Source: an uncultured Actinomycetota bacterium
Lineage (GTDB): Bacteria > Actinomycetota > Actinomycetes > DATJPE01
Assembly: GCA_963851405.1 (NCBI GenBank)
Contig: CAWKPB010000007.1
Coordinates: 268,780 to 332,779 of the forward strand
Length of the DNA stretch: 64,000 nt
Direction: 5' to 3'
The notes under the pieces are model-generated. The model worked only from the letters and a program-made list of their open reading frames with translations, did no database searches and had not been told where the DNA came from. This document shows positions 4,855 to 49,353 of the stretch, one piece after another. A program made the position numbers and the translations under genes. Within the stretch, counting starts at the first letter, position 1. Every line of letters starts with the position of its first letter.

Positions 4855-5011
4855 CCCTCGCCTCTAGATGTGTCGATCTGATCACGAGTCGTGACAAGTT
4901 CACCCGAATAGCGCACAGTCCTGGGGTTTGCGGACCGACCCCTCCTGGGTAGACCATGGGGGAGCCGGCGAAAGAGCTGGTTGCTCGGTCCGACCCCTCC
5001 CCCCCGGGCCT

Positions 5012-5046
5012 GGACCGCAGCGACGACCCCCGCTATCCCCCCCAGC
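5012..5046. promoter_or_regulatory. perfect 13-bp inverted repeat (gacgacccccgct / agcgggggtcgtc) with a 9-nt C-rich loop, in the divergent HAD / tad-operon intergenic region
   Basis: Read directly from the sequence at 5012-5046. A near-direct repeat cggNccgacccctcc lies at about 4931 and 4986. Confidence 0.5.
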
Positions 5047-5241
5047 GGGGGTCGTCCCTTGTCCGCACTCGGGTGGACCCATCAACAGTGCGCATCGCGC
5101 CGATCACCCACAGTGATCGTTTGGCCGATCTCCCCAGGCCCCAGTTATCCACGTCTCCCGGCGCCAGGGTTGGCCCCCGGGTACGGCCGGGGCAGGGTCG
5201 CTGGCCTCAGTTCGTGCCGGCGACAGCAGCGGAGGCCACCC

Positions 5242-7524: not shown

Positions 7525-8379
7525 ATGATCCGGACCGCAGTGGTGGCTGGAGTGCTAGCCGGCACTGCAGCCTGGGCCTGGATCAGCGTTTCCCCGTCTT
7601 TGCCCGGCATGCGCCCAGAGAGCAAGCGCCGTCGGCCGAAGACCCTGAGCACGCCTGGACGCTCGGCGGTCTCCATCGGTGGTGTGGCCGTCGGCCTCGT
7701 TGCGGTGCTGGTGGGCTCTGCGCAGGTGGTGGTCACGTTGGTCCTCGTCTCGGTTGGAGCCTTTGCTCTGCGGCAGCGCAGACAGAATCAACGGCTCGCT
7801 TTCGAGCAGCGGTTGGCCGCCGCGGTCGCCGAGGTCGTTGGCTCCCTGGGGGCCGACGTCGCGGCCGGGGCCGTACCACTGGAGTCCCTGTCCGCGGCCG
7901 CGACCGAGTGTGCGTCCTCGTCAGCTGGCTCCGGTCGAACCACTTTGGGTCAGTGCCTGGACGCCGCGGTCTCTGCGGGACGCCTCGGAGGCGATGTCTG
8001 CGGCGAGCTTCGACGGTTGGCCGAGCGGCCGGGCGCCGAGGGCCTTCGCGACCTAGCGATCGCTTGGGAGGTGGCCGAGCGGTGTGGGGCTCGGGTCGCG
8101 GTCGTCCTCGAGGGGGTGATCGAGGGGCTCACCGAGAAGCAGGCCGCACGAAGCGCGGTGGATGCCTCGCTCGCGGGGGCCAGGGCGTCGGCTCGGCTCC
8201 TCGCAGCGCTCCCCGTCTTCGGCCTTGGCATGGGTGCGGCACTGGGTGCCCATCCGTTCGCCTTTCTGGTGGGTCATCCGGTCGGTCGAGGGTGCCTGTT
8301 TGCTGGTCTGGGGCTGGAGGCCACTGGGGTCTGGTGGACGGAACGTCTCGCTGCTGCTGCCAGACGACGGGCCTCATGA
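7525..8379 (+). CDS. tadB: TadB-like pilus assembly inner-membrane protein
   Basis: ATG at 7525 in frame with ORF 7441..8379, just after the tadA stop; hydrophobic N- and C-terminal segments; position in the tad operon. Confidence 0.7.
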   Translation: MIRTAVVAGVLAGTAAWAWISVSPSLPGMRPESKRRRPKTLSTPGRSAVSIGGVAVGLVAVLVGSAQVVVTLVLVSVGAFALRQRRQNQRLAFEQRLAAAVAEVVGSLGADVAAGAVPLESLSAAATECASSSAGSGRTTLGQCLDAAVSAGRLGGDVCGELRRLAERPGAEGLRDLAIAWEVAERCGARVAVVLEGVIEGLTEKQAARSAVDASLAGARASARLLAALPVFGLGMGAALGAHPFAFLVGHPVGRGCLFAGLGLEATGVWWTERLAAAARRRAS

Positions 8380-29784: not shown

Positions 29785-29857
<73 letters not shown>

Positions 29858-30047: not shown

Positions 30048-30698
30048 GTGCTTCCCGCGCCGGACTTGGAGTCGCTGGCGGCGATCGCGGTCTACGCGAT
30101 CGTCTGGTCCTTCATCTTCGCCGAGTGCGGGCTGTTCGTCGGCTTCTTGCTCCCCGGCGACACGGTCTTGTTCGCCTCGGGCTTGGTGGCGGCCGCACCG
30201 AACAGTGGAGTCAACATCTGGCTGCTGTGCGCCGGCTCGCTGGTGGCCGCAGTAGCTGGTGACCAGGTTGGCTATCACCTGGGGAAACGGTATGGCAGGT
30301 CTTGGGCGCTGCACCGAGGGGAGGGCCGCATCGCCGGCCACCTGAATCGGGCTGAGCGGTTCTACACCCGATTCGGCTTATGGGCTGTGGTCATCGCTCG
30401 GTGGATTCCGTGGGCACGCACCTTCGTGCCAGGCGTGGCGGGCGCCGCTGACATGGCGCGTGGGAAGTTCCTCGTAGCAAATGTCGCTGGGGCGATCCCA
30501 TGGGCCGTCGGTGTCACGCTGGCGGGGTATGGCACAGCGACCGTCGCGTGGGTTCGCGGGCTCTCGGTGGCCTTGATCGTGTTGAGCCTGTTGCTGGTGA
30601 TCACTGGCGCCGTGGTGTTCGGTGTCCGGACCCGCCGAAGGGGGGAGACCTCCTCAGCTGGTGACAGCGACGGGCCGGCTTCTTTCGGAGGTGTCTGA
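30048..30698 (+). CDS. DedA-family membrane protein
   Basis: GTG start; FLLPGDTVLFASG and ...VIARWIPWARTFVPGVAG are DedA/SNARE-associated signatures. Confidence 0.8.
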   Translation: MLPAPDLESLAAIAVYAIVWSFIFAECGLFVGFLLPGDTVLFASGLVAAAPNSGVNIWLLCAGSLVAAVAGDQVGYHLGKRYGRSWALHRGEGRIAGHLNRAERFYTRFGLWAVVIARWIPWARTFVPGVAGAADMARGKFLVANVAGAIPWAVGVTLAGYGTATVAWVRGLSVALIVLSLLLVITGAVVFGVRTRRRGETSSAGDSDGPASFGGV

Positions 30699-33398
30699 GC
30701 TGCCGAGGAACGCTTCGATGACGCGAGGGTCGCTCTGGACCACGTCGGCCGTCCCTTCCGCGATGACAGCGCCTAGGTCGAGAGCCACGAATCGATCGCA
30801 CACGGCCCTGAGCAGGGTCATGTCATGGTCGATCACGATCATGGTCACTCCGAGTTCGTTGTTGACGTAGCGCAACAGCTCGGCCAGCGCCGGGATCTCG
30901 GAGTGCGCAATCCCGGCCGATGGTTCGTCCAGGAGCAAGACGTCCGGTCCGAGGACAAGGTCACAGCCAAGCTCTGTGAGGCGCCGCAGCCCGGTCGGGA
31001 GAGAGGCGATCGTCTCCCTACGGTAGTCCGTCAACCCCAGTGCTTCGAGAACGACCGCGGGATCGGTCCCCGTCTTTGTTCGCCGGTGGGCGACGGCCAA
31101 CGTCTCCTCGACGGTGAGAGTGGGGAACAGCGCCGCGTTCTGAAAGCTGCGGACGAGGCCGCGTCGAGCGCGCCCCTGGGGCGTGATCGACGTGACGTTT
31201 CGTCCGCGCAGCCTGGTCTGCCCGGAGTCGGGTCGAACGAATCCGGACGCGATCTCAAACAGCGTGGTCTTCCCCGCTCCGTTCGGCCCGATCAAAGCCA
31301 CGGATTCCCCGGCATTGACGACGACGTTCACCCCTCGAACGGCCTGGATGCCTCCAAAGGATCGCGCGATGTCGATCAATTCCAGTGCTGGGTCGTTGGC
31401 TAGTCCTCCCCTGTGTGGTGCCGCGGGCAGCTGGGAGGGGCTGACCGTCGTGGACTTCGGCATCACGCGTGGCGCGTCTCGGACTGGTGTCGGGTCCACG
31501 CCGCGCAGCCGCACGTACTCCTCGACCAGCCAGTCTCGGATCGGTGACAACACCGCCACCAACCCGCCCGAGCGCATGACGACCAACAACAAGAACAGCA
31601 GTTGCAGGATGGCGGTCGGGACGACACCCAGCCCCGCGATAAGGGGCAGGCCAACGACGACGAGGGCACCGATGACCGGTCCCGTCGTGACGGCGAGACC
31701 ACCGACGATCGCCAAAACGACGACCTCGATCGACGCGGTGGCAGGGAACTGCTCCGGAGTTACGAGCTGCTGAGAATGCGCGAGCAGCGACCCGCCGAGC
31801 CCGGCGATTCCTCCGGCTACGGCGAAGGCTTGCAGTTTGCGCCGCTTAACGGGAACCCCGAGCGCTTGGGCGGACTTCTCGTTGTCGCGGATGGCCACCC
31901 AGTCGCGTCCGAGCTGGCTTCCGATGATCCATCGGGTCGCGATCACTGCGAGGACGAGTATCCCGAGGGCCAGCTGGTAATAGAGCGCTGAGTCATCCAA
32001 GCGGAAGGGCCCAATGACCGGCTGAACCGTCTCCCGCCCGCTGCCAAGTGCCCACTCCTGGGGCAGCAGCCACGAACGACCGGCGAGCGCGAAGGCCAAG
32101 GAAACGATGGCCACGACGAACCCGCGTGCGCGAAGGCTGGGGAGTCCGATCACGACCGATACGGCGGCCGCCGTCACCACTGCTGCGAGCGGTCCAAGGA
32201 CGAAGACCCCCGTAGCGGCGACGACCTTGACCGACGCGACGGCGCCGGCCCCGGCCACGGCGAATTGGCCAAGCGAAAGTTGGCCCGCGCGCCCTGTAAG
32301 CACCAGCACCGAGAGACCGACGATCGCGAAGGAGAGGGTCGCGGTCAAAGCGAAGGAGGATGAGCTATCCAGGAATCGTGGCACCCACAGAGCTGCAATG
32401 GCGACCACCAGCGCGCCAGCCAGGGTGCCGAAGTGCCGCACCGCGAAGAAGCGGAGGAACGGCTCTGGAATGCGCGGGAGAGCCAGCGCCGTCCAGTCAC
32501 CGTCATCGTCGGACTCTCGGCCGCTGGACGGAGGGAGCACCATCAAGACGACGAGGGCGACGGCCATCAGAATGAGATCGATGGCTCCGCTCGTGGCGTT
32601 GGCTGTCCGTACGACGGTGTCGACCACGCCGATGGCCACACCGGCTAGGAAAGCGACAGTCACGCTCTCGAAGCGGGCGACGGCGGCGGCCACCAAGCCG
32701 CGAAGCATGAGCGACGGGCCGAGAATCACCAGTGCGCCAAAGCCCTGCGTGGGCCAGAGCAGGATGGCGGCGAACGCAGCGATACCGCCCGCTAGAGCCC
32801 AGGTCCTGCCTGCGACCACGCTGGGTGAGATTCCCAAGCTGTATGCGGCGTCCGGGTTGCTCGCTGTAGCCCGGATCGCCAGGCCGAAGGAGGTTCGCCG
32901 GAGCAGGACGAGCAATCCAAGGACGAGAAGCGGGCTGAGGATGAGTAAGGCGGCATACGGTGGCGTGACTACGAGACCCGCGACCGTGAAGGACGGGAAT
33001 CCTGCCGGTTGTGGGTACTGAGAACCCAGCTGCGCATCGCTGTTGATCGCGAACCCTGCGGCGAGCAGGAACTGACTGAGCAGAAGGGTGACCCCCACTC
33101 CGAGCAACCGCGGCTGACCCTCCAGGCGCCGCACGATGGTGGCCTCGACGGCGGCAGCAATGCCAGCTGCAACCAGCAATCCCACGACGAACGCGATCCA
33201 ATACGGAACGCCGTACTGGACGACCAAGGTCCCGACCAACGCCCCACCAAAAGCGCCCAGCGCGCCTTGGGCGAAATTGATGAACTTGCTGACCTTGTAG
33301 ATCAGGACGAGGCCCACGGCGAGGAGGCCGTAGGGGATCCCGACGACAATCCCCTGCAGCAGGACGGCGACCGACAGATCCATGCCGAAGACGGTCAT
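30654..33398 (-). CDS. fused branched-chain amino acid ABC transporter: LivH-like permease + LivM-like permease + LivG-like ATPase
   Basis: 914 aa; two successive roughly 300-aa polytopic permease domains, then Walker A GPNGAGKTTLFE, LSGG-like signature and Walker B VLLLDEPSAG. Confidence 0.85.
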   Translation of the reverse strand: MTVFGMDLSVAVLLQGIVVGIPYGLLAVGLVLIYKVSKFINFAQGALGAFGGALVGTLVVQYGVPYWIAFVVGLLVAAGIAAAVEATIVRRLEGQPRLLGVGVTLLLSQFLLAAGFAINSDAQLGSQYPQPAGFPSFTVAGLVVTPPYAALLILSPLLVLGLLVLLRRTSFGLAIRATASNPDAAYSLGISPSVVAGRTWALAGGIAAFAAILLWPTQGFGALVILGPSLMLRGLVAAAVARFESVTVAFLAGVAIGVVDTVVRTANATSGAIDLILMAVALVVLMVLPPSSGRESDDDGDWTALALPRIPEPFLRFFAVRHFGTLAGALVVAIAALWVPRFLDSSSSFALTATLSFAIVGLSVLVLTGRAGQLSLGQFAVAGAGAVASVKVVAATGVFVLGPLAAVVTAAAVSVVIGLPSLRARGFVVAIVSLAFALAGRSWLLPQEWALGSGRETVQPVIGPFRLDDSALYYQLALGILVLAVIATRWIIGSQLGRDWVAIRDNEKSAQALGVPVKRRKLQAFAVAGGIAGLGGSLLAHSQQLVTPEQFPATASIEVVVLAIVGGLAVTTGPVIGALVVVGLPLIAGLGVVPTAILQLLFLLLVVMRSGGLVAVLSPIRDWLVEEYVRLRGVDPTPVRDAPRVMPKSTTVSPSQLPAAPHRGGLANDPALELIDIARSFGGIQAVRGVNVVVNAGESVALIGPNGAGKTTLFEIASGFVRPDSGQTRLRGRNVTSITPQGRARRGLVRSFQNAALFPTLTVEETLAVAHRRTKTGTDPAVVLEALGLTDYRRETIASLPTGLRRLTELGCDLVLGPDVLLLDEPSAGIAHSEIPALAELLRYVNNELGVTMIVIDHDMTLLRAVCDRFVALDLGAVIAEGTADVVQSDPRVIEAFLGSSDTSERSRPVAVTS

Positions 33399-34714
33399 GC
33401 CTGTGCCTCAGCCATCTCGACCGTTCCGGCCAGGTAGGCGCGGGTCAGTAGGTCGGGGCTTCTCCGGAGGACCTCCGAGGGCTCGGACAGCGTGATCCGA
33501 CCGCGCTCCATGACGAGCACCTGAGAAGCGAGCTGAAGCGCGACGTTTGCGGACTGCTCCACGAGGAGGACCGCCGTGCCGGTTGCGGCGACCGACCTAA
33601 TCAGGTCGACCAATTGGCTCACGATGCGAGGCGCCAGGCCGAGGGAGAACTCGTCGACGAGCAGAACGGCTGGCGGATCGAGAAACGCGCGAGTGAGTGC
33701 CAGCATCTGCTGCTCACCACCGGAGAGGGTGCCGGCCTGCTGGCCCGCTCTTTCGCGAAGCCAAGGAAAGGATGCCTCGACGTGCGCGGTGCGTTCTTCG
33801 CGCGTCCGACGATCCAGCCGGTGCGGAAAACACCGAGAGGTTGTCTGCGACGGTGAGGGGCGGGAACACCGCGTGCCCTCCGACGACGAGGCCCAGTCCC
33901 GAACTCGGCGCGTCCAGCCGGAGTTAGGCCCGTGACGTCGTGCCCGCCCATCGGATCGAGCCCGCGAGAGGACGTTCCAGGCCCGCGAGGGTGCGGAGTG
34001 TGGTCGTCTTGCCTGCTCCGTTGTTCCCGAGCAAAGCCACGATGTGCCGGGCGCGATCGCGAAGGTGACGTCGAAGAGCACCTGTACCGGTCCAAGGGCA
34101 ACGGACAGGCGGTGGCGGCCAGGGCCGGGGGTCGGCGGGTGCGGGTTCGCTGGCGATCGTGTTCCAGGCATCTGCGCATCCGGGGAGACCAGAGTCCGGA
34201 TGTCAGCCTTCAGGGTCGGCCGGTCACTCGGTGGACGGCGCCGAGCGAGGATGAGGGCGACGATCACGTGAATCCCGATCATGACGTACGCGGTGAAAGA
34301 GAGCACGGTGTACATCGGCTCCTTGCCCACCGCGGTCTGCGCCAGCATGAAGACCAGCAGGATGACGTAAGCGGCGTAGCCGTTGATGGTCCGCAGATTC
34401 GCGCGTCGGGGAGGGAATCCGAACACGTAGAAGGAGTAGGCGGCATGCGTGAACAGGACGAGTGTCGCGGTGACCTGGATGGCCACATTGAACGCGGACA
34501 GCCATGAACCGAGCACACCGTCGGGATTCTGATCGTGCAGCCAGCTCACGAGATAGCTCGCGGGAAACACCACGACAAGGGCGACCCCGAGCCGACGGTT
34601 CCAGCGGGTGATGGAACGCTTGCGGCCGGTCCGGGCGACCAGCTGCGCGCTGTTCGCTCGCGTGGCGCACGGGTGCCGCGTGCGGCGGCGGGCCAGGGGC
34701 AGCGTCTGCGCCAC
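33395..34714 (-). pseudogene. disrupted livF-type ABC ATPase (multiple frameshifts) joined in-frame to an upstream roughly 4-TM membrane domain
   Basis: The C-terminal half is intact in frame (TLSGGEQQMLAL..., Walker B LLVDEFSLGLAP, VLLVEQSAN). Walker [35 protein letters not shown] and LGLVVGGHAVFPPLTVADNL each lie in different frames between about 33800 and 34080. The N-terminal roughly 160 residues are hydrophobic and unrelated to LivF. Confidence 0.6.
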
Positions 34715-34849
34715 GGGGTGTTTCGCGGGCGGAACGCGTTCACATTTCGCACAATGTATGACAGGCTCCCTCCGTGCGCGCAGACCCTGACGCGCACGAC
34801 ATTGGGATGACGTCCACCCGAAGGAGCATGCCGCAGGCCCACTCGCGCA

Positions 34850-36176
34850 CGTCCGGCCGGTCGCCCTGCCCTGCTGCTGCCCTGTTTGCTAGCGGCGTGC
34901 ACCACCACCGGATCGACGCCGACCCAACCCGGCGCGGAGGACGCAGCCGCAACGGCGGGAGTGCCCGGGCCGGGGGTCACGGCCGACACGATCACGGTGG
35001 GGTGCTCGTCCTCGCTGGCGCCAACACCGCCGGCTCTGGCGGTTTCGTCGTGTCGCCCCAGGGCGACACGCAAGCAGCAGGCGCAGGTGGTGATCGACAC
35101 ATCAACGATCAGGGGCGGCATCGCCGGCCGACAAGTCAAGCCTGTCTGCGGGAGTTTGACTCCTCGACCTCGTCGCCCACGACAGAGACCGCCGTCTGCA
35201 CGTCGTTTACCCAGGACGACGAGGTGTTCGCGGTGATCGCTGCTCGGCCAGCGCACCAACGCGGCGCGCTCCTGCTACCAGAAGGCCGAGACTACGTTCC
35301 TCGACGTCTCGCAAGCCGCTCAGCCGTCCTCGATCTACACGGAATCTCGCGCCGTACTACTGGACGCCGAACTCGGTGCCCTCGACTCGCGACGAAGAGC
35401 TGATCACGGACCTAGGCGCGAGTGACGGCTTCTGCCGGGGCGCCAAGGTCGGCGTCCTCGTCGAGAAGGATCCGAGCTTCGAGGGCGTCTACGACGAAGT
35501 TGTGACCCCGGCACTGCAGCAGCTCGGGGCCACGGCAGTCCCGCGGACGATCGACCAGAGCACCTCGGAGAACGCGATTCGCCACGGCGGGCGTCCGCGG
35601 CCTCGTCCTTCCAGAAGGCGCGGGGTCGACCATGTGCTGTTCCTCGGGCGACCGGACAACGTGGGGCTACTTCACGACCTTCACCGACTCAGCAGAACTA
35701 CTACCCGACGCTCGATCCGGCGCTTCGAGACACCCAAGTTCATGGCGCAGAACCCGTCCGTGTATCCGGCGAAGTCGCTGTCTGGCGCTCAGGGAATCGG
35801 ATTCTTGCCCGACGTCGATGAGGTCCCCGACTACGCCTTCCCTGCCCCCGGTGCGGAGACCACCTGCATCAACATCTTGGGAGATGCTGGCATCACCTTC
35901 GAGGGTCGAGCCGAGGCGAAGACCGCGCTGCGATTCTGTGACGGCCTGATGTTCCTAAAAACCGTGGGAGACCAGATTGGGCCCGATGGGGTGATGAACG
36001 CAGCGAACATGGCCGCGGTCGCGGCTGGCCTCGGGTCTACGTGGCAGGCGGCCACCACCCTGGGGACGTCGTTTGGGACCGAGGGTGCCACGACGTACGC
36101 GCCTGGAGCCGGGTACCGGACTCTCGTCTACGACGGAGTGTTTGCCTACGACGGCGACACCAAGAACTTCAGCTGA
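34850..36176 (+). pseudogene. disrupted Liv-type periplasmic substrate-binding lipoprotein (at least four frameshifts)
   Basis: Lipoprotein signal LLLPCLLAACTTTGS and GVTADTITVG in one frame; VLVLAGANTAGSGG and TQDDEVFAVIAA in a second; GIAGRQVKP in the first again. The 3-prime 800 nt (ORF 35376..36176) is a single frame resembling the SBP C-terminal lobe. Confidence 0.55.
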
Positions 36177-36188
36177 GGAGGACGAGAG

Positions 36189-36932
36189 ATGTCGATGTCT
36201 GCGCAGAACTGGTTCTTCTTGCTCCTGGCCTGCGCCGCAGTGGGCTTGATGGTTCTCGCCATTCGAACGGCACACCGCGGGAAGGCGGTGAAGGTCTCAG
36301 ACTCGTGGCTGCTCGTTGTGGTGCTGACGGGGCTCGTCTACGACAACGCGATGCTGGCTTTCGGATCGAGCCTCGGCGAGGGCACCCTGACCATGGTGCT
36401 GTCCGCGCCACGCTTCGTCCTCCACGGTCTCTTCACGCCGCTGCTCATCATGTTCGCGGCGCTCTCCGCTGATCGCATGGACGTGCCTGGGTATCGGGAC
36501 AGAGAACGAATCACGCTCTGGGGGGCGATCGCATTCGTCGCCGTCTTGGTGGGCCTGGTCAACGACATCGTGCAGTTGTCACTGACCCCGACGGTCAGTC
36601 AGGGGATTCTCAGCTACAAACACCTGGACGGCGGACCACCTGTGGCGGAGATCATTACGGTCGTCTCCTTGCTCGTGATCGGCGGTGTGATGCAGCGGTA
36701 TGCGCGTTGGCCGTGGGTCTTCGTTGGAGCCGCCCAGATGTTCGTCATCGCCGCGTTCTACGTGTCCAACACCTTCCTCGCGAATCTCGGCGAGCTCGTG
36801 TTGCTCTCCTGCATGGTCGCGACCGGGATGGCAGCGGTGACCCGCACTGCAGCGGAGCGAGATGCGCGCCGGGAGGCCGCGCTGAGTCGTCGCTCGAAGC
36901 GGAGCCCGACGCCAATGTCCACCGGATCATGA
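36189..36932 (+). CDS. integral membrane protein (hypothetical, 6-7 TM)
   Basis: 247 aa, mostly hydrophobic helices, RBS-like ggagga upstream; no recognisable motif. Confidence 0.5.
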   Translation: MSMSAQNWFFLLLACAAVGLMVLAIRTAHRGKAVKVSDSWLLVVVLTGLVYDNAMLAFGSSLGEGTLTMVLSAPRFVLHGLFTPLLIMFAALSADRMDVPGYRDRERITLWGAIAFVAVLVGLVNDIVQLSLTPTVSQGILSYKHLDGGPPVAEIITVVSLLVIGGVMQRYARWPWVFVGAAQMFVIAAFYVSNTFLANLGELVLLSCMVATGMAAVTRTAAERDARREAALSRRSKRSPTPMSTGS

Positions 36933-37002: not shown

Positions 37003-37725
37003 ATGTCCGTAGCCGGCGCCTCGCCACCCGTCGCTGGTCTGGATCGGGGCACGCTACGTGAGCGGTTGGCGGCCATCATCCGCACGGACATCGTCGCCGG
37101 TGTCTTCAAACAAGGTGAGCAGTTGCGTACGGAGACCTTGGTCAGCCGCTACAACGTGAGCAATACCCCTGTACGAGAAGCTCTCGGAGTCCTCGCTAGT
37201 GAGGGCTTGGTGGAGATGCGGACCAACCGCGGGGCCTGGGTCAGCCAGGTGACCAAGAACGACGCCGAGGGGCTGCTCCAGGTGGCTGCGCTGCTCAACG
37301 TGACGGCGTACGAGCGGGGGATCCCGCGCCTGACGGACACCGACATCGCGTTGCTCAGTCAGCACGCTGACGAGGCGATGCGCGCTCAGTTGGCTGGAGA
37401 CGTGCCGCGCGCCATGGGGTGTGCCCACCGGATCCACGACGTGGTTCTTAGCGCCGCCGGCAACCCTGAGTTGGTTCGCATCCTGCGCCAGATCCAGCCA
37501 CGGCTCGATCGGCTGGTTCGGATGCTGTACACCGCTGACGGCTCCGCTGAGCGTCGTGGCGTCCCGATCACTGCCGCCGAGACCGACCACTTGGCCATCG
37601 TGCGAGCGCTGGAGGCCGGCCACCGCGACGAGGCGATCGGGTTGGTCCGCGGGGCTTGGGAGGCGTTCGTGCAGGCCGTGGCGTTGGCCCCTGAGGCCGC
37701 GTTCGCGGACCAGCTGAGCCAGTAG
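37003..37725 (+). CDS. GntR-family transcriptional regulator (FadR/FCD subfamily)
   Basis: wHTH LRTETLVSRYNVSNTPVREALGVLASEGLVE followed by an all-helical FCD-like C-domain. Confidence 0.85.
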   Translation: MSVAGASPPVAGLDRGTLRERLAAIIRTDIVAGVFKQGEQLRTETLVSRYNVSNTPVREALGVLASEGLVEMRTNRGAWVSQVTKNDAEGLLQVAALLNVTAYERGIPRLTDTDIALLSQHADEAMRAQLAGDVPRAMGCAHRIHDVVLSAAGNPELVRILRQIQPRLDRLVRMLYTADGSAERRGVPITAAETDHLAIVRALEAGHRDEAIGLVRGAWEAFVQAVALAPEAAFADQLSQ

Positions 37726-37842
37726 GGCTCTTCGGCTTTCGCAGGATTTAGCAAAATGCTTGATCTGAGGCTCGAGCCGTGGCAGGGTGACATGTACGGA
37801 ACATGGTTCCACCCACTGAGACAACTTCCGTTGGAGTCAGAC

Positions 37843-38349
37843 ATGCACAAGACGGCCCTCGCCCGAGGCGCGACTGGCGCCTTCGCCGCACTCATGCTCG
37901 CGAGCCTCGTGGTCCCGAACACGGCGACCGCGTCAACGACAGCCGCGCCGAGCGTGAAGCAGGCTGGCGTGGAACTTCAGGGCAAGGCGCCTTCGTACAC
38001 CGTGAACAAGCCCGCCCCTTACCGGAAGGGCCAACGCGTGACGGTCACCTTCCGCCACTTCCCCAAGAACAAGACGCTCCTTATCGCGGTCTGCCGCGCC
38101 CGTACCGACTTGTCGCGCGGGGCGGAGGCCGTCGGAGACTGCGCGCCTTTCGCTGGCCCGAGCTCGGAGTTCGCGACCAGCAACGGCAAGGGCAACGGCA
38201 AGGGCAAGGTCACGATTCTGCGCGGCAAGTTGCACGCGGCCAACTGGCCGGGCTACCGCTGTGGAAACAAGAAGAAGAACCGATGCGTCCTCGTCGTGTC
38301 CGACCTGTCGGCAAAGCATGTGGTGAAGAAGAAGCTCACCTACACGTAA
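37843..38349 (+). CDS. secreted protein with one neocarzinostatin-like (NCS-family) beta-sandwich domain
   Basis: ATG at 37843 after ggag; signal peptide ...VVPNTATA; domain GQRVTVTFRHF...IAVCRA...GDCAPF...GKGKVTI...YRCGNKKKNRCVLVVSD, with the four-Cys spacing and V(t)V-x-G...C...C...D pattern of the NCS family. Confidence 0.6.
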   Translation: MHKTALARGATGAFAALMLASLVVPNTATASTTAAPSVKQAGVELQGKAPSYTVNKPAPYRKGQRVTVTFRHFPKNKTLLIAVCRARTDLSRGAEAVGDCAPFAGPSSEFATSNGKGNGKGKVTILRGKLHAANWPGYRCGNKKKNRCVLVVSDLSAKHVVKKKLTYT

Positions 38350-38407
38350 TCAAGGAACAGTCAGCACACAGTCCAGCCAACAGTCCCATCAAGGGGAGGA
38401 ACCCCAC

Positions 38408-39451
38408 GTGTCCAGACTTGCCAAGCGCCTTGCGATCGGCGCCGCCTCTGCGGTCATGGTCGCCGTCGCCCTCGGCTCACCGAGCGTTGCGGCGGCAGCG
38501 CCGTCCCTGACCTTGTCCGACTACGGTCCGTTCGTGAACGGAGACTCGACCACCGTTTCTTGGGACGGCTTCCCGGCGTCGGAGATGGTCATCGTGGCTG
38601 TGTGCAAGAAGGCCACGGTCCTGACCGGACCTGGCGACTGCGCCGGCGCCGCCGACAGCGCCAAGGTGGTGATGTCTTCAGCCGCTGGGGCTGGTTCGGT
38701 CGACCTGACGGTCATCCGCGGGGACCTGGGCTCCACGCCCGCATGGAAGTGTCGCCCCGGGGACGGTCACGAGTGCGACATCGTGGTCTCGAACTTCACG
38801 GGTACCTCCATCGCGAAAACCCCCATTGTGTACGCCGCCACGATCACCTCCCTGTCACCGGATGGTCGCTACGCCGGTGGCGAGACGGTGAAGATCAAAT
38901 TCTCGGGGGCTGGCAAGAACCAGACCAACCCGCCGGTCGCAGCTTTCATCTGTGATGCAGATGTTCCTCTTGGCGACGGCAGCCTGGCCTGTGACTTCAC
39001 TGCCTTTGGTCCCGCCACCGTCGATGCCTCGGGCAACGGAGTGGCCAAACTAACCATTGTTCGCGGGGCGATCGGCAATGCCCTCGGTTCGAAGTGTGGG
39101 AACAAGGCTGGAAACAAGTGCGACATCGTGATCACGGACTTCAATGGACGCCTCTTGGCCACCACGCCGATCAAGTTCTTCAAGCAGCAGTCGGTTGATG
39201 GGGTGCCGAAGAAGGTCGTTCGGGGCGAGAAGGTCTCACTCCCGCGTGAGACGGTCCAGGGCAAGAAGCTCAAGTGGGTCAGCAAGTCCGAGGCGACCTG
39301 TGTCATCAAGAAGGTGTCGAAGAACGGGAAGACGACCTACAAGGCCAAGGGCCTCAAGGTCGGGACCTGCTCGCTCGTCGCCAAGGCGAACGGCGGCGCG
39401 AAGTACGCCTCGCTGCGTTCGCCTGAGTCGCTGAAGGTCGTCAAGCCCTAA
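38408..39451 (+). CDS. secreted protein with two tandem neocarzinostatin-like domains plus a C-terminal Lys-rich beta domain
   Basis: GTG start after aaggggagga; signal peptide; two repeats each with ...VAVCKK...GDCAGA...KCRPGDGHECDIVVSNF and ...AAFICDAD...LACDF...KCGNKAGNKCDIVITDF; paralog of the preceding gene. Confidence 0.6.
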   Translation: MSRLAKRLAIGAASAVMVAVALGSPSVAAAAPSLTLSDYGPFVNGDSTTVSWDGFPASEMVIVAVCKKATVLTGPGDCAGAADSAKVVMSSAAGAGSVDLTVIRGDLGSTPAWKCRPGDGHECDIVVSNFTGTSIAKTPIVYAATITSLSPDGRYAGGETVKIKFSGAGKNQTNPPVAAFICDADVPLGDGSLACDFTAFGPATVDASGNGVAKLTIVRGAIGNALGSKCGNKAGNKCDIVITDFNGRLLATTPIKFFKQQSVDGVPKKVVRGEKVSLPRETVQGKKLKWVSKSEATCVIKKVSKNGKTTYKAKGLKVGTCSLVAKANGGAKYASLRSPESLKVVKP

Positions 39452-39502: not shown

Positions 39503-39565
39503 AGACGAGGCCCTCGGCGCATAGCCGGGGGCCTCGTCGGTGAGCCGGGTCGGCCCGGCGTTTTG
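39503..39565 (+). terminator. tandem hairpins downstream of the NCS-like genes; the second is followed by a T-tract (intrinsic-terminator-like)
   Basis: Stem gacgaggccc...gggcctcgtc (10 bp), then gccgggtcggcccggc followed by gttttg. Confidence 0.5.
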
Positions 39566-43888: not shown

Positions 43889-46800
43889 ATGTCCGTGAGC
43901 ATTCAGTCCGCATTCACTGCCCGCCCGACGGCCGTCGTCGCCGCGGCAGTCGTCGTTCTCGGGTCACTCTCGGTGACGGCCGCGGTCGTACCGGTCGCCG
44001 AGGCCGCCCAGGCCAAGCCGGGCCACACGAGCTTGGTGCCCGACGTCCCGCGCAACAACACCCCTCGCATCAGCAACGGTGAGATCTTCGACATCGAGGT
44101 CGTTCCGCAGCTCAATCGGGTGTTTATCGCTGGGTCCTTCTCCTCGATTCAGAACCGCACCGGCAACACCGCCGTGGTCAATCAGGCAGGCCTCGCCTCG
44201 TACAACATGAGCACTGGATTGATCGACACGGCCTTCCGCCCCTCGTTCAATGGCGGCGTAAGTGCGGTCGAAGCGTCTCCCGATGGCACCAAGTTGTTCG
44301 TGGGTGGCACCTTCAGCTCCGTGAGTGGGGTGGCCCGGCAGAAGGTGGCCAGCCTCAACCTGACAACAGGCGTTCCGGTGGCCGCTTTCGCGAGCACGAA
44401 GAGCACCAACAACGCGGTCAACGCCCTCGCTGCCACGAACAGCACGCTCTACGTCGGCGGGAAGTTCAGCCGGATCAACGGGACACTCATGACCGGCCTG
44501 GCGGCGTTGAGCGCGTCAACCGGAGATGTCGACCCCGGTTTTGACAACCAGATCTCCGGCGGGATTGGGGTCAACGGCGTTCTCACGGTCCAGCAGTTGA
44601 AGCTGACGCACGACGACTCGAAGCTCCTGGTGGTCCACTCCGGCCGCAAGATCGCGGGCCAAGACCGCCTCGCCGCCGGACTGATCGATACCCAGACCAA
44701 GCAGCTCTTGCCCTGGCGGACTCGGCTGTGGGACGAGTACCTCCCGATCGTGGGCGGGGTGCAGCGTGTCTACGCCGCAGACATCGCGCCGGACGACTCC
44801 TACTTCGTCGTCGGGAGCGGTTCGGGCGGCGACCGGCCGCCGATCAGTGACACGGCAGTCGCGTACCCGCTCGCCGGGGCCGACAACGTGCAGCCGTTGT
44901 GGGTGTCTCGGGCGTTCGACAGCATCTACTCCGTCGCCATTACCGAACAGGCCGTGTACATCGGCGGCCACTTCAACTGGAACGAGTCGCCGACGGCAAC
45001 CCAGCCATGGCCCGGTCTGGAGAACGTGGGTTACGGCAACGGTCAGGGACTGTCCGGGTACGGCCTCGGGGACGAAGTGGTCCACCGGTTCCAGCTGGGC
45101 GCCCTGAACCCCGTGGACGGGACGGCCCTGGAGTGGGGCCCGATCTCGACGGCCTTCGAGGGGAACAAGGCCATGGAGGCCACTCCTCGCGGTCTATTCG
45201 TGGGTGGCGACGGTATGTACCAAGGCGGCCTTCGGACCGGCCGGGTGGCCTTCTACGACTTCAACTCGCTGCCGGCGCCTTCCACGACCGACACGACGAT
45301 CACCGCGCCGATCGAAGGTCGGGTCGTGACGTCCGGCACGCCGTTCACGATCACGGGGACGGCCAAGAACCCACAAGGCATCAGGCGGGTTCAGGTGCAG
45401 GTGAAGGACCGGGACACCAAGCAGTTCCTCCAAGACGACCTCACCTCCTGGGGCCGGACCAACAGCATCAACGCCACCTTGGGCAGTGGCACGACCAATC
45501 GCAGCTGGTCGCTCCCCTTGACCCTCGCGGGGACCCGCTTGCTTGAGGCCCGCGCCAAGACCATCGGGACCAACGGCGTGAAGGACACGACTCAGGCGAT
45601 CAAGAAGTTCGAGATCTTCAGCTTCGACGATCAGACGCCGTCCACGAGCATCACCGCGCCGTCCGGTGTCCAGCCCAGCACCAGCTTCACGGTCTCCGGT
45701 ACCGCAACTGACGACCACGGGATTAACGCCCTCACGTACTGGTTCCGGGACGAGAACAACCAGTACCTGCAGAACGACGGCACGGTCGCTCCGATCTTCA
45801 ACACTTTCCGCGGTGCTCCGGACGTGATCGGGGCGCCCTCCGCGACCTGGTCCTACGACGTGACCCTGCCGCACGAGGGGGTGTGGCGCGGGAGCGCTAC
45901 GGCCATCGATACGGCTGGCCAGGCCGACCTTCGCAGCGGTGTCCGTGACTGGGTGGTGGACTCGAATGCGTCGCCTCCCACGGTCGAGATCGCTCAGCCG
46001 GTCACGATGATCCCCCCGATCGCGGCGGCCAGCGTCGTCGTGACCCCTGGATCGCCGTTGACGTTCTCGGGGACGGCGACGGACGACCAGCGCGTGAAGA
46101 ACGTGGAGATCCTGCTGCGTAACACCTCCACTGGTGAGAACCTCGGCTCCGACGGGTCATGGGGGGTCGGGGTGGCCTATGGCTACCACCGAATCTCGCC
46201 CGTGAACGTCAATATGGCTACGTACAACTGGTCATATACGACCCCGTTCTCGCTTTCCCCGGGCAGCTATCAGTTCACGATTCGGGCGACGGACAACGAC
46301 GACTTGACAACTCCCTCGAGCAGCCGCGGGTCATTGACCGTGCTGGCTCAGATCCCCGGCGACAGTGCGCCGAACGGTCTGCTCGATGTGACGGGAGCGC
46401 AGGTCACGGCGTCGTCGGCACTTCTGCTCACGGGTACAGCGACCGACGACTTGGGGGTCCAGAGCGTCGTGTTGACGATCCGGGACAACGACACCGGTCG
46501 CTATATGCAGCCGAACGGTTCGATGAGTTCGGACTACGCGACCCTGAGCACAACTCTGACGAGCCCCCTCGCGATGAGCACGAGCTGGTCGCGTTCGGTC
46601 ACGTTGCCGACGAGCGGCAACTTCGCGGTCACGGCCTTCGCCTATGACACGGCTGGGCAACGGGACCCGTCTACCTCCGGGGCGACTGCCAGCTACCGCT
46701 ACTACCCGGGCGACGCGCCACCCACCTTCGAGGCGGCACTGGGCCAACCGGTCGACGGCACGGCATTCACGGAGGGCCGGATCGTGGTGACCGGTCGCGC

Positions 46801-47842
46801 CACAGACGACCTGAGCATCGCCAAGGTCGAGGTGGCCGTCGTGAACCCCGTGGGGCAGTACATGTCCGGCTCCGGTTCGTTCACGAGCACGAACGAGAGT
46901 TGGCGCTCGGCGTTCATCAATAGCCCTGGCAGCACTGGGTCGAACTTCTCCTACACGACCCCGGTCATCGCGGACGGTACGTACACGGTGCTGGTGCGAG
47001 CCACCGATCACCACAGCCAGATCAGTGAAATCCGTACGTCCACCGGGATTACGGTTACCCACCCGGAGAACCTCCCCCCTGTGGCGGCGGCGACAGTTTC
47101 GTGTGCCCAGAACGTCTGCTCCTTCGATGCCCGGTCGTCGACGGATGAGAACCCGACGGCGTTGACCTATGCGTGGAACTTCGGCAATGGCTCTGGCTCG
47201 GGACCGGTGCCCGTTCGCACCTACCCCGGCCCCGGCCCGTACACGGTGAGCGTCACCGTCACTGATGAGTGGTTGGCGAGCTCCACGTTTGTGTTGGCCC
47301 CGTTCACTCTCGCGGAGCCGGTGGGCAACGCGGCCCCCCTGGCGGTGCTCACGACGAGCTGTGTGGCACTCACGTGCGGGGCCAGCAGCGCGTCGAGCTC
47401 CGACGCGAACGCAGGGGACCTGATCAGCCGGGTCCTTAACTGGGGTGATGGGTCGACGACTACGTCGACCACGTCCTCCCACACCTATGCGTCCCCCGGC
47501 AACTACGTGGTTACGCTCACAGTGACTGACGGCTGGGGCAAGTCGAATGTCGCGACCAAGACCTTGAGCCTGGTCGTTCCACCGGGGAACAACCCACCTG
47601 CTGTCGGATTCACCACCGACTGCACCGGCCTCACCTGCTCGTTCGTGAACACGACGACCGAACCGGACGGCGATGTCGTGCGGTACGCGTGGGCTTTCGG
47701 CACCATTCCCGAGAGCACGAGCGTGTCGCAGTCACCGCCGCCGAAGACCTACCCGGGACCGGGGACGTACACGGTCACGCTCACGGCGACCGACGGTTGG
47801 AACCAGGTGAGCACCGTCAGCCACACAGTGAGCGTCAGCTAG
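43889..47842 (+). CDS. very large secreted protein: N-terminal propeller-like region, about five roughly 120-aa Ig-like repeats with a TGTATDD motif, three C-terminal PKD domains
   Basis: 1317 aa; signal peptide. Five copies of [ST]G[TR]ATDD at roughly 360-nt spacing between about 45350 and 46800. Three PKD-like units with C..C....D...[YW].W.FGDG between about 47090 and 47840. Confidence 0.8.
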   Translation: MSVSIQSAFTARPTAVVAAAVVVLGSLSVTAAVVPVAEAAQAKPGHTSLVPDVPRNNTPRISNGEIFDIEVVPQLNRVFIAGSFSSIQNRTGNTAVVNQAGLASYNMSTGLIDTAFRPSFNGGVSAVEASPDGTKLFVGGTFSSVSGVARQKVASLNLTTGVPVAAFASTKSTNNAVNALAATNSTLYVGGKFSRINGTLMTGLAALSASTGDVDPGFDNQISGGIGVNGVLTVQQLKLTHDDSKLLVVHSGRKIAGQDRLAAGLIDTQTKQLLPWRTRLWDEYLPIVGGVQRVYAADIAPDDSYFVVGSGSGGDRPPISDTAVAYPLAGADNVQPLWVSRAFDSIYSVAITEQAVYIGGHFNWNESPTATQPWPGLENVGYGNGQGLSGYGLGDEVVHRFQLGALNPVDGTALEWGPISTAFEGNKAMEATPRGLFVGGDGMYQGGLRTGRVAFYDFNSLPAPSTTDTTITAPIEGRVVTSGTPFTITGTAKNPQGIRRVQVQVKDRDTKQFLQDDLTSWGRTNSINATLGSGTTNRSWSLPLTLAGTRLLEARAKTIGTNGVKDTTQAIKKFEIFSFDDQTPSTSITAPSGVQPSTSFTVSGTATDDHGINALTYWFRDENNQYLQNDGTVAPIFNTFRGAPDVIGAPSATWSYDVTLPHEGVWRGSATAIDTAGQADLRSGVRDWVVDSNASPPTVEIAQPVTMIPPIAAASVVVTPGSPLTFSGTATDDQRVKNVEILLRNTSTGENLGSDGSWGVGVAYGYHRISPVNVNMATYNWSYTTPFSLSPGSYQFTIRATDNDDLTTPSSSRGSLTVLAQIPGDSAPNGLLDVTGAQVTASSALLLTGTATDDLGVQSVVLTIRDNDTGRYMQPNGSMSSDYATLSTTLTSPLAMSTSWSRSVTLPTSGNFAVTAFAYDTAGQRDPSTSGATASYRYYPGDAPPTFEAALGQPVDGTAFTEGRIVVTGRATDDLSIAKVEVAVVNPVGQYMSGSGSFTSTNESWRSAFINSPGSTGSNFSYTTPVIADGTYTVLVRATDHHSQISEIRTSTGITVTHPENLPPVAAATVSCAQNVCSFDARSSTDENPTALTYAWNFGNGSGSGPVPVRTYPGPGPYTVSVTVTDEWLASSTFVLAPFTLAEPVGNAAPLAVLTTSCVALTCGASSASSSDANAGDLISRVLNWGDGSTTTSTTSSHTYASPGNYVVTLTVTDGWGKSNVATKTLSLVVPPGNNPPAVGFTTDCTGLTCSFVNTTTEPDGDVVRYAWAFGTIPESTSVSQSPPPKTYPGPGTYTVTLTATDGWNQVSTVSHTVSVS

Positions 47843-47940: not shown

Positions 47941-49353
47941 GTGGATCGACCGATCCAGTTAGGGTCGCAGCCCGACCAACGACACCCGACGAGCCATCCC
48001 GAGGGGGAACAAGTGGCGGCCGAGGCCAACCCCGCGCGTTTTCGCGTGGCTGGTCGCTCGCGGTGCGGATACACCCGGCTCATCAGGATTTCCGTGGCCG
48101 GGCTCGCGACGCTGGCCCTAGGCCTTGGTATCGCCCTTCCCGCGCAGGCCAAGCCGCGGGACCCCACCCCTTCGGCGAGTGACGTGGCGCGGGCCCAGGA
48201 TGCGGCTCGAACTGCGGCGACTGACGTCGGTTTGATGCAAGCCCGCCTCGTCAACGCCCAGGGCCAGCTCGAGGCCTTGGAATCGGCCGAGGAGCGGGCC
48301 GTCGAGGCGTACAACGGAGCCCTCTTCTTGCTGGCCCAAGCTGAGGAGGCGGCCGCTGCCGCCCGATCACGCGCTGATGCGGCGAGCGTCGATCTGTTGG
48401 CCGCCCAGCGGGAGGTCGGCCGGTTCGCGGCGGCGAGCTATCGGATGGGTGGCGATCTCGGCAGTTTCGCGTCGATGCTCGATGCCGATGGCCCCACCGA
48501 TCTGATGAACCAAGCCAGCGACTTGGCGAACGTCGCGTCGAGCAACGATGTCGCCCTGGATCGCGTGGCGGCTGCACGGATCGTCTCCGCGGTGCTCGAG
48601 CAGCAGGCCACAGCCGCCGTCGAGGCGCAAACGGCAGCCGCTGAGCAGGTCCGGCTGGCCAAGGAGGAGGCGCAAGCTCGAGTCGCGGATCAGTCGGCGC
48701 AAATCTCGGGGCTGCGACAGTTGAGCAGTCAATTGTCCTCCCGACTGGCGCAGGCCAGGGCCACCGCAGGCAGTCTTTCGCAGGAGCGTCGTCAGGGCCT
48801 GGCCCAAGCGGCCCGTGATAAGGCAGCCCGTGAAAGGGCAGCCCGCGAAGCCAAGCAGAAGGCCGAGGCTGCCGGGTCGAGTGGCAACGGCAACACGGCG
48901 GGACCGCCGCCGGGTGATTCCGATGGCGAAGGGAACCCGTCGCACTGGTCTCCGTCGTTCATCGGCGGCACCCAATCCGGCAATAAGGCCGAGGCCCAGA
49001 AGGCGATCGCCTACGCGCGCAAGCAACTGGGAAAGCCGTATCTGTGGGCAGCCGCGGGGCCGGACCGTTTCGACTGCTCAGGACTGACGATGATGGCCTG
49101 GCGCAAGGGCGGGGTGTCCCTCCCGCACTGGTCGGTCGCGCAGTTCGCTCAGGCTCGCAAGGTCCCGGCGGCGACGGCCCGCCCTGGTGATCTCGTGTTC
49201 TTCGCCTTCGACGTCAGCGATCCCGGGACCATCCACCACGTCGCGCTCTATATCGGTGGCGGTCAGATGATCCATGCCCCCAGAACCGGGGACGTTGTCC
49301 GAGTGGCAGCTGTCTCCTCGGTCGGTGGACTGATCGGTTTCGCGCGCCCCTAG
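47941..49353 (+). CDS. NlpC/P60 peptidoglycan endopeptidase with long N-terminal coiled-coil (RipA-like); true start probably further downstream
   Basis: C-terminal [21 protein letters not shown]...[16 protein letters not shown] (Cys-His catalytic pair of NlpC/P60); central Ala/Gln-rich heptad region. Confidence 0.8.

Follow-up and report, generated by a model that had tools for sequence, protein, structure and literature searches.

A conserved gene pair of uncultured Actinomycetota encodes basic, predicted secreted proteins built from divergent neocarzinostatin-like modules

The neocarzinostatin (NCS) fold is known experimentally almost only as an enediyne carrier and as an engineered binder of small molecules. 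What, then, might proteins with such a fold do at a locus that holds no antibiotic pathway? The question is raised by two adjacent genes on the forward strand of a 64-kb stretch of contig CAWKPB010000007.1 (henceforth the window) from an uncultured Actinomycetota bacterium, gene 1 (37843-38349) and gene 2 (38408-39451). An earlier note on this DNA had read the two open reading frames (ORFs) as paralogous secreted binders of the NCS type that plausibly work together with an efflux system encoded downstream, and we find both ORFs at the same positions and on the same strand. The reading that we favour, with belief somewhat outweighing doubt, is that the pair forms a bicistronic operon for secreted, envelope-associated binding proteins made of divergent NCS-like modules, and that these proteins are not enediyne carriers.

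Gene 1 encodes a 168-residue and gene 2 a 347-residue protein, both predicted to be secreted, and each ORF is preceded by a ribosome-binding site. Gene 1 starts with the ATG at 37843 behind GGAG at 37833-37836, while gene 2 starts with the GTG at 38408 behind GGGGAGG at 38393-38399, leaving an intergenic gap of 58 nucleotides. The database call for gene 1 (P0006) is 197 residues long and begins at 37756, which we consider 29 codons too early, since the extension overlaps a conserved non-coding block (the promoter-like block and palindrome described below) and since all homologues of gene 1 begin at the Met equivalent to 37843. Read from the sequence, residues 1-30 of each protein (37843-37932 in gene 1, 38408-38497 in gene 2) form a signal peptide with a positive n-region, a hydrophobic core and an A-x-A motif, as the earlier note had proposed, and neither protein carries a lipobox, a twin-arginine motif, a C-terminal sortase signal or a transmembrane anchor. 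In gene 1 the signal peptide is followed by a disordered linker and a single NCS-like domain (residues 49-168, 37987-38346). Gene 2 continues with two NCS-like domains, D1 (residues 31-143, 38498-38836, isoelectric point (pI) 4.6) and D2 (residues 144-259, 38837-39184, pI 8.8), and ends in a Lys-rich, Ig-like C-terminal domain (residues 260-347, 39185-39448, pI 10.3).

The three NCS-like domains are paralogous units of about 115 residues that share four invariant Cys; gene 1 holds one such unit and gene 2 two. The gene 1 domain aligns with D1 at E = 2e-17 and with D2 at E = 4e-13, and D1 aligns with D2 at E = 6e-13, which bears out the paralogy of the two genes. An alignment of 12 units from this and related loci shows no variation at the four Cys, at three Gly and at one Val, and in 103 distant relatives each of the four Cys still reaches a conservation of at least 90%. 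The motif that had been given for the unit in the earlier note describes gene 1 and D2 roughly and D1 more loosely, where CRPGDGHEC stands in place of CGNK..N.C.

We then asked whether these units belong to the NCS family. A Pfam search for this family, the test named in the earlier note, returned no match: at E <= 10, PF00960 (gathering threshold 25 bits) still matches neither protein. The NCBIfam model for enediyne antibiotic chromoproteins, NF040680, gives 43.2 bits (E = 3.2e-11) for gene 2 and 15 bits (E = 0.017) for gene 1, both short of its equivalog cut-off of 86 bits, and single-sequence searches of the PDB with either protein yielded nothing relevant. The gene 1 family as a whole has no Pfam match at all, and the gene 2 orthologues P0002, P0004 and P0005 carry weak precomputed PF00960 matches. 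The relationship becomes visible only with a profile of the aligned units and by fold search. When the 12-unit profile (A1) was run against the PDB, the top matches were the C-1027 apoprotein (8e-4), apokedarcidin and macromomycin, with neocarzinostatin also listed at a non-significant E of 3.6. The AlphaFold2 model of gene 1 has a predicted local distance difference test score (pLDDT) above 90 over most of the domain, and the eleven best Foldseek matches of this model in the PDB (macromomycin, neocarzinostatin with engineered variants, and C-1027) all hold an NCS-family chain, with template-modelling (TM) scores of 0.66-0.80 and E of 3e-6 to 2.6e-4; actinoxanthin and kedarcidin follow further down the list at TM 0.61-0.63. 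Single domains of the gene 2 model match 2mcm, 1nco and 1j48 at TM of about 0.73. The predicted models thus have the neocarzinostatin/actinoxanthin-like beta-sandwich fold that the earlier note had recognized, and we conclude that the units are remote homologues of the NCS family that share its fold and, by prediction, its disulfide pattern, and that fall short of the curated thresholds.

The position of the cysteines agrees with this assignment. Mapping the unit profile on a neocarzinostatin reference sequence identical to 1nco_A puts Cys1, Cys2 and Cys4 on C37, C47 and C93, with Cys3 three residues from C88 because the loop here is longer. In the 1993 crystal structure of neocarzinostatin, the chromophore cleft is reportedly lined by the C37-C47 disulfide and by the residues that directly follow C93. 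Conservation in the window's proteins is highest around the Cys1-Cys2 loop, where the peak 15-residue windows fall on residues 95-110 of gene 1 (EAVGDCAPFAGPSSEF) and on residues 177-196 in D2 of gene 2 (VAAFICDADVPLGDGSLACD), and the invariant segment of D1 reads W-x-C-x-x-G-x-GHECD. Over homologues that are 50-70% identical, the near-invariant loops are GDCAPFAGPSSEF in gene 1, CDADVP-GDGS-AC in D2 and GHECD in D1. The gene 1 model has a helix (residues 90-99) inserted in the Cys1-Cys2 loop.

A second shared property is charge. The mature proteins have a pI of 10.4 (gene 1) and 9.4 (gene 2), compared with 4.05 for apo-NCS computed in the same way, and the mature gene 1 protein of 138 residues bears a net charge of about +20. 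This trait extends to the families, with a pI of 10.2-10.5 across all ten gene 1 family sequences (overall identity of the ten homologues 50-59%) and of 9.4-9.9 in the gene 2 family. A further net charge of about +16 resides in the 88-residue C-terminal domain of gene 2, which the earlier note had rightly described as a Lys-rich beta region. This domain is all-beta in the model (pLDDT about 65-70), and its matches to Pfam are weak, with best scores of 18.4 bits for Big_3_5 and 16.4 bits for Big_1; at 15-18 bits it does not reach the gathering thresholds of these families (about 35 bits), and a profile of seven orthologous C-terminal domains found no sequence match in the PDB. It therefore resembles bacterial Ig-like domains in its all-beta structure and its weak Big_3_5 and Big_1 matches, but differs from them in being very rich in Lys and Arg and in having a conserved Cys pair.

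How do these proteins compare with the carriers of enediynes? They share with the enediyne apoproteins (NcsA, CagA, macromomycin, actinoxanthin and kedarcidin) the beta-sandwich fold, profile homology, Sec secretion, a unit of about 110-120 residues and two disulfides, here predicted, at equivalent positions. By contrast, the sequences are 15-24% identical, neither the PF00960 nor the NF040680 cut-off is reached, the Cys1-Cys2 and Cys3-Cys4 loops are longer (with the helix in gene 1), and gene 2 is a multi-domain protein with an extra Ig-like domain. Both proteins are strongly basic, whereas neocarzinostatin apoprotein is acidic, as, reportedly, are the other enediyne apoproteins. Neither is thus a small, single-domain, acidic chromophore carrier: gene 1 and gene 2 are basic and gene 2 has three domains. 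Enediyne biosynthetic genes are likewise missing from the window, in which no ORF reaches the length of an enediyne polyketide synthase (PKS), the longest encoding 1317 residues (PKD/Big_7) and 942 residues (topoisomerase I), and the annotated ORFs serve housekeeping or transport (a helicase, H+-pyrophosphatase, topoisomerase I, DNA polymerase III delta', FtsH, peptidases and ABC transporters). Since no antibiotic pathway lies nearby, the pair is best placed in a divergent group of surface modules and not among drug carriers. On the genes of the 64-kb window and the properties of the two proteins, we conclude that the products of gene 1 and gene 2 are not enediyne chromoprotein carriers.

If not with an antibiotic pathway, with what is the pair inherited? 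Nine related loci were recovered, one from an uncultured Actinomycetota metagenome-assembled genome (L001) and the others from metagenome contigs (L002-L009, L009 from an ENA assembly). The gene pair is kept in L001-L004 and L006-L009. In L006, gene 2 has three units (472 residues), and L005 holds a gene 2 orthologue alone, between an EPSP-synthase-family gene and a 3-hydroxyacyl-CoA dehydrogenase gene. The gene 2 orthologues of L001 (8446-9494) and L009 (10001-10468) are broken by frameshifts, probably assembly indels, and P0017 is such a fragment.

Two conserved elements on the forward strand ahead of gene 1 emerged when the upstream sequences of five loci (the window, L001, L002, L005 and L009) were aligned. 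The first is a promoter-like block (37760-37788) in which TTGATC (37760-37765) and CAGGGT (37783-37788) are separated by 17 nucleotides; it was not called by a scan for consensus sigma-70 promoters, and it may serve as the promoter. The second, a candidate operator, is the perfect palindrome GGAACATGGTTCC (GGAAC-N3-GTTCC) at 37798-37810. This is the sole exact match within the window, and with one mismatch allowed the count is at chance level. A single copy of the palindrome, with a variable spacer, holds the corresponding position ahead of the leading NCS-like gene in L001-L005 and L009, and none is present in L006-L008. Block and palindrome together are kept in L001-L004 and L009, and also in L005, ahead of its solitary gene 2 orthologue; there the palindrome at 7947-7959 is the equivalent of 37798-37810, and neither a GntR gene nor gene 1 lies nearby. 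The two elements accompany whichever NCS-like gene stands first, whether GntR and gene 1 are present or not.

The gene directly upstream of gene 1 in the window encodes a GntR/FCD-family regulator (37003-37725, forward strand; Pfam GntR and FCD), which is a possible regulator of the pair and a possible binder of the palindrome. In the window, L001-L004 and L009 it adjoins the pair; in L006 it is found beyond the pair, on the opposite strand; and it is missing from L005, where the palindrome occurs without an adjacent GntR gene. The palindrome is also unlike the core of GntR operators, which we take to be GT-N-AC. We considered the GGAAC half as the -35 element of an extracytoplasmic function (ECF) sigma factor and dropped this idea, as no conserved -10-like CGTT or GTT follows at 16-18 nucleotides.

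Downstream of gene 2, tandem terminator-like hairpins (39504-39564, forward strand) comprise a 15-bp stem (39504-39538), a 6-bp stem (39544-39559) and a final GTTTT. The 15-bp stem is GC-rich and 93% complementary, and the fold of the region has a z of -5.0 relative to shuffled sequences, so that the strong terminator-like structure of the earlier note holds up; a simple terminator scan missed the hairpins because they lack a long T run. Equally strong hairpins of 10-16 bp and unrelated sequence occupy the same position 3' of gene 2 in L001, L002, L005 and L006. Position and strength are thus kept and the sequence is not, which points to a genuine terminator that ends the operon ahead of the MacB unit downstream. 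An Rfam search of the flanks found no RNA element near the genes. Together with the 58-nucleotide gap, the conservation of the pair and the promoter-like block with its palindrome, the hairpin found in all of the loci examined supports the view that gene 1 and gene 2 would be transcribed as a bicistronic operon, with its own promoter-like block and palindrome at one end and the hairpin terminator at the other.

From these observations we propose that the operon would yield two unanchored proteins, secreted by the Sec pathway and made of divergent NCS-like beta-sandwich modules, each with two predicted disulfides at NCS positions, and that the proteins most likely act outside the cell as envelope-associated binding proteins. 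An extracellular location is indicated by the signal peptides and by relatives that carry lipoboxes, transmembrane anchors or WxL, CWB2, TIG, fn3 and Big domains. The positive charge of gene 1 and of the C-terminal domain of gene 2 may hold the proteins on the anionic envelope or another polyanion, and the near-invariant, disulfide-bounded loops, which match the walls of the NCS chromophore cleft, may form a site for a ligand or partner. Several points weigh against this proposal. Its functional part draws on analogy and on patterns of conservation, and the model of gene 2 is moderately confident, with a pLDDT of 67. In the model of gene 1, the helix at residues 90-99 could fill the cleft rather than line it, and the loops could be conserved because the disulfides constrain folding around them, not because they form a binding site. 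Finally, the synteny comes from few, fairly close relatives (50-59% identity to gene 1) and lends weak support to a functional linkage.

To what wider population do such modules belong? An exhaustive search with the unit profile collected 387 cluster representatives (at 50% identity) with E <= 1e-3, for the most part extracellular proteins with several repeats. Among the top 150 relatives, roughly two in three hold 2-8 units in tandem, with lengths that reach about 1200 residues; the modules combined with the units in relatives include TIG, Calx-beta, fn3, Big_3_5, WxL and CWB2, and some close relatives carry lipoboxes or C-terminal transmembrane anchors. Among the 103 best relatives, 89 match PF00960 (E <= 0.001), P0018 doing so with 26.8 bits, and 50 of the 103 (P0018-P0120, alignment A4) match NF040680 at E <= 1e-20, the best at 1.2e-103. 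Since many of the latter, being long proteins of multiple repeats, cannot be chromoproteins, NF040680 risks over-annotation. The notion that the domain is confined to enediyne producers is therefore accurate for the searchable literature and fails for sequence space. In the literature searched, such non-enediyne proteins are mentioned for two organisms only: CwpG, a sortase-anchored NCS-like protein of Actinoplanes missouriensis whose deletion causes no visible phenotype (PMC13251363), and Jiangella, in which a 2026 genome paper describes an NCS-apoprotein-domain gene beside an HtaA-domain gene with an iron-regulator site (PMC13608877).

These actinomycete extracytoplasmic proteins (IPR002186) resemble gene 1 and gene 2 in their non-enediyne context, their extracellular location and their single or repeated NCS-like modules, and the unit-profile search links gene 1 and gene 2 to the same population, with function unassigned. 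Gene 1 and gene 2 differ from them in lacking a sortase signal, a lipobox and a transmembrane anchor, in being far more basic and in forming a conserved pair of a one-module and a two-module gene. The pair itself is rare. A scan of GTDB for the gene 1 family found it in one of 185,579 species representatives (L001), a metagenome scan for the gene 2 family added one short locus, and a third, word-indexed homologue search with the unit alignment added one new protein, a frameshifted fragment; where the source of a relative of the pair was identified, it was an uncultured member of the Actinomycetota. The clade of gene 1 and gene 2 is thus a rare, divergent and basic branch of a known fold family.

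The long, multi-unit relatives suggest that the NCS-like unit could be a mere Ig-like building block and that gene 1 and gene 2 encode purely structural or adhesive surface proteins, whose charge would adhere to walls, extracellular DNA, minerals or cells. We regard this as unlikely while granting it appreciable weight. The tandem arrays in two thirds of the best 150 relatives, the company of TIG, Calx-beta, fn3, Big_3_5, WxL and CWB2 domains, as in surface and stalk proteins, the Ig-like C-terminal domain of gene 2 and the silent CwpG deletion in Actinoplanes (PMC13251363) would all fit such a role. However, the near-invariant loops of gene 1, D2 and D1 exceed what a spacer module needs, and gene 1 and gene 2 are short proteins without an anchor motif, not long stalks.

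The genes upstream of the pair offer another interpretation. In the conserved order, a Liv/HAAT-type ABC importer and its substrate-binding protein are followed by a membrane protein of about 250 residues, the GntR/FCD regulator, gene 1 and gene 2. In the window, the importer block (30654-36176; Pfam BPD_transp_2, ABC_tran and BCA_ABC_TP_C) comprises a fused permease-ATPase (30654-33398, reverse strand), a second ATPase (33395-34714, reverse strand) and the substrate-binding protein (about 34836-36176, forward strand), and it is common to L001-L004, L006 and L009. A tRNA gene (29785-29857) lies about 800 bp from its 3' end. The membrane protein, here of 247 residues with several hydrophobic segments and apparently six transmembrane passes (36189-36932, forward strand), is 63% identical to its L002 counterpart and is found upstream of the pair in all loci holding gene 1; it has no Pfam or NCBIfam match, and its orthologues have a weak NrsF match only. 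It always stands between the binding-protein gene and the NCS-like pair.

Reading frames of the importer are disrupted in the window. The genes for the second ATPase and the binding protein are frameshifted, with the shifts clustered at 33800-35400, while gene 1, gene 2 and the long ORFs in the rest of the window are uninterrupted. In the second ATPase, Walker A is encoded in frame -3 and the ORF lies in frame -1, and the coding sequence of the binding protein is spread across three frames. On a short-read contig with an identical gene 2 protein, the two genes are called at 424 and 446 residues. Either the assembly is wrong at this place or the importer is truly decaying.

By analogy with the relay of heme by NEAT and HtaA proteins, gene 1 and gene 2 might be accessory capture proteins that pass a substrate to the binding protein of this importer, a role that we consider improbable and slightly more so than a structural one. 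The importer block, the membrane protein and the pair do remain linked in the window, L001-L004, L006 and L009, whereas the flank downstream varies, paralogues with one, two and three modules (P0018 included) recall the Isd/NEAT series, and the Jiangella gene with the NCS-apoprotein domain neighbours an HtaA-domain gene that has an iron-regulator site (PMC13608877). Like the NEAT and HtaA proteins, the proteins here consist of Ig-like beta-sandwich modules in one to three copies and are encoded beside an ABC importer. Yet no sequence or profile relationship to those proteins was found, and the importer here is of the amino-acid/urea type and not of the heme or siderophore type. Moreover, the linkage is broken in L005, where the gene 2 orthologue retains block, palindrome and terminator with no importer, membrane protein, GntR gene or gene 1 nearby. 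In the window, the pair is intact next to a frameshifted importer, and it has a promoter-like region of its own.

The charge of the proteins might also point to an antimicrobial or competitive function, in which the secreted cationic proteins would attack the anionic envelopes of other cells nearby. Small, secreted proteins with two predicted disulfides and a charge of about +20 on 138 mature residues would suit this function, but the charge argument is generic, no immunity gene, toxin domain or PADLOC match was found and no relative with such an activity emerged from the searches run, so that we hold it to be very unlikely.

As to the genes on the other side, the neighbours named in the earlier note are present, with Pfam matches identifying the GntR/FCD regulator upstream and MacB_PCD/FtsX, an ABC ATPase and a TetR regulator 3' of gene 2. 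The arrangement built on them, a secreted binder coupled to MacB efflux under TetR, does not stand. This unit follows gene 2 in the window only, across a 241-nucleotide spacer that includes the strong hairpin, and the downstream genes differ in every related locus recovered, being 3-hydroxyacyl-CoA dehydrogenase and methylmalonyl-CoA mutase genes or others. That the pair encodes apoprotein-type carriers of a hydrophobic or reactive, enediyne-like molecule exported by MacB/FtsX is the reading to which we give the least credence: the enediyne-apoprotein fold with its predicted disulfide pattern and the exporter directly downstream speak for it, whereas the absence of a PKS-length ORF among the otherwise housekeeping genes of the window, the absence of the MacB/TetR unit from all related loci, the terminator that parts it from gene 2, the basic nature of the proteins, the sub-threshold NF040680 scores and the lack of a PF00960 match all speak against it.

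Elsewhere in the window, a 6C RNA, of a family typical of Actinobacteria that fits the phylum assignment, lies at 4979-5060. The 1317-residue protein (43889-47842) has Big_7, Y_Y_Y and three PKD domains and an N-terminus that resembles a signal peptide, and its gene is followed by that of an NlpC/P60 peptidase (47941-49353).

What does the pair mean for the NCS family? For annotation it is a warning, as the curated models miss the gene 1/gene 2 branch entirely. Together with the 387 clusters, the locus indicates that the NCS module is widely used in extracellular proteins that have no link to enediynes, none of them with an assigned function. A bolder picture, which we regard as a long shot, would be of a distinct cationic branch of the NCS fold whose cleft takes a non-enediyne ligand, forming a surface capture or carrier pair that possibly feeds an ABC importer and is controlled through the GGAAC-N3-GTTCC operator; if true, this would give a first physiological role to hundreds of NCS-like modules outside antibiotic clusters. 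Short, well folded, conserved and equipped with clear regulatory signals, the pair is a tractable entry to what NCS-like modules bind.

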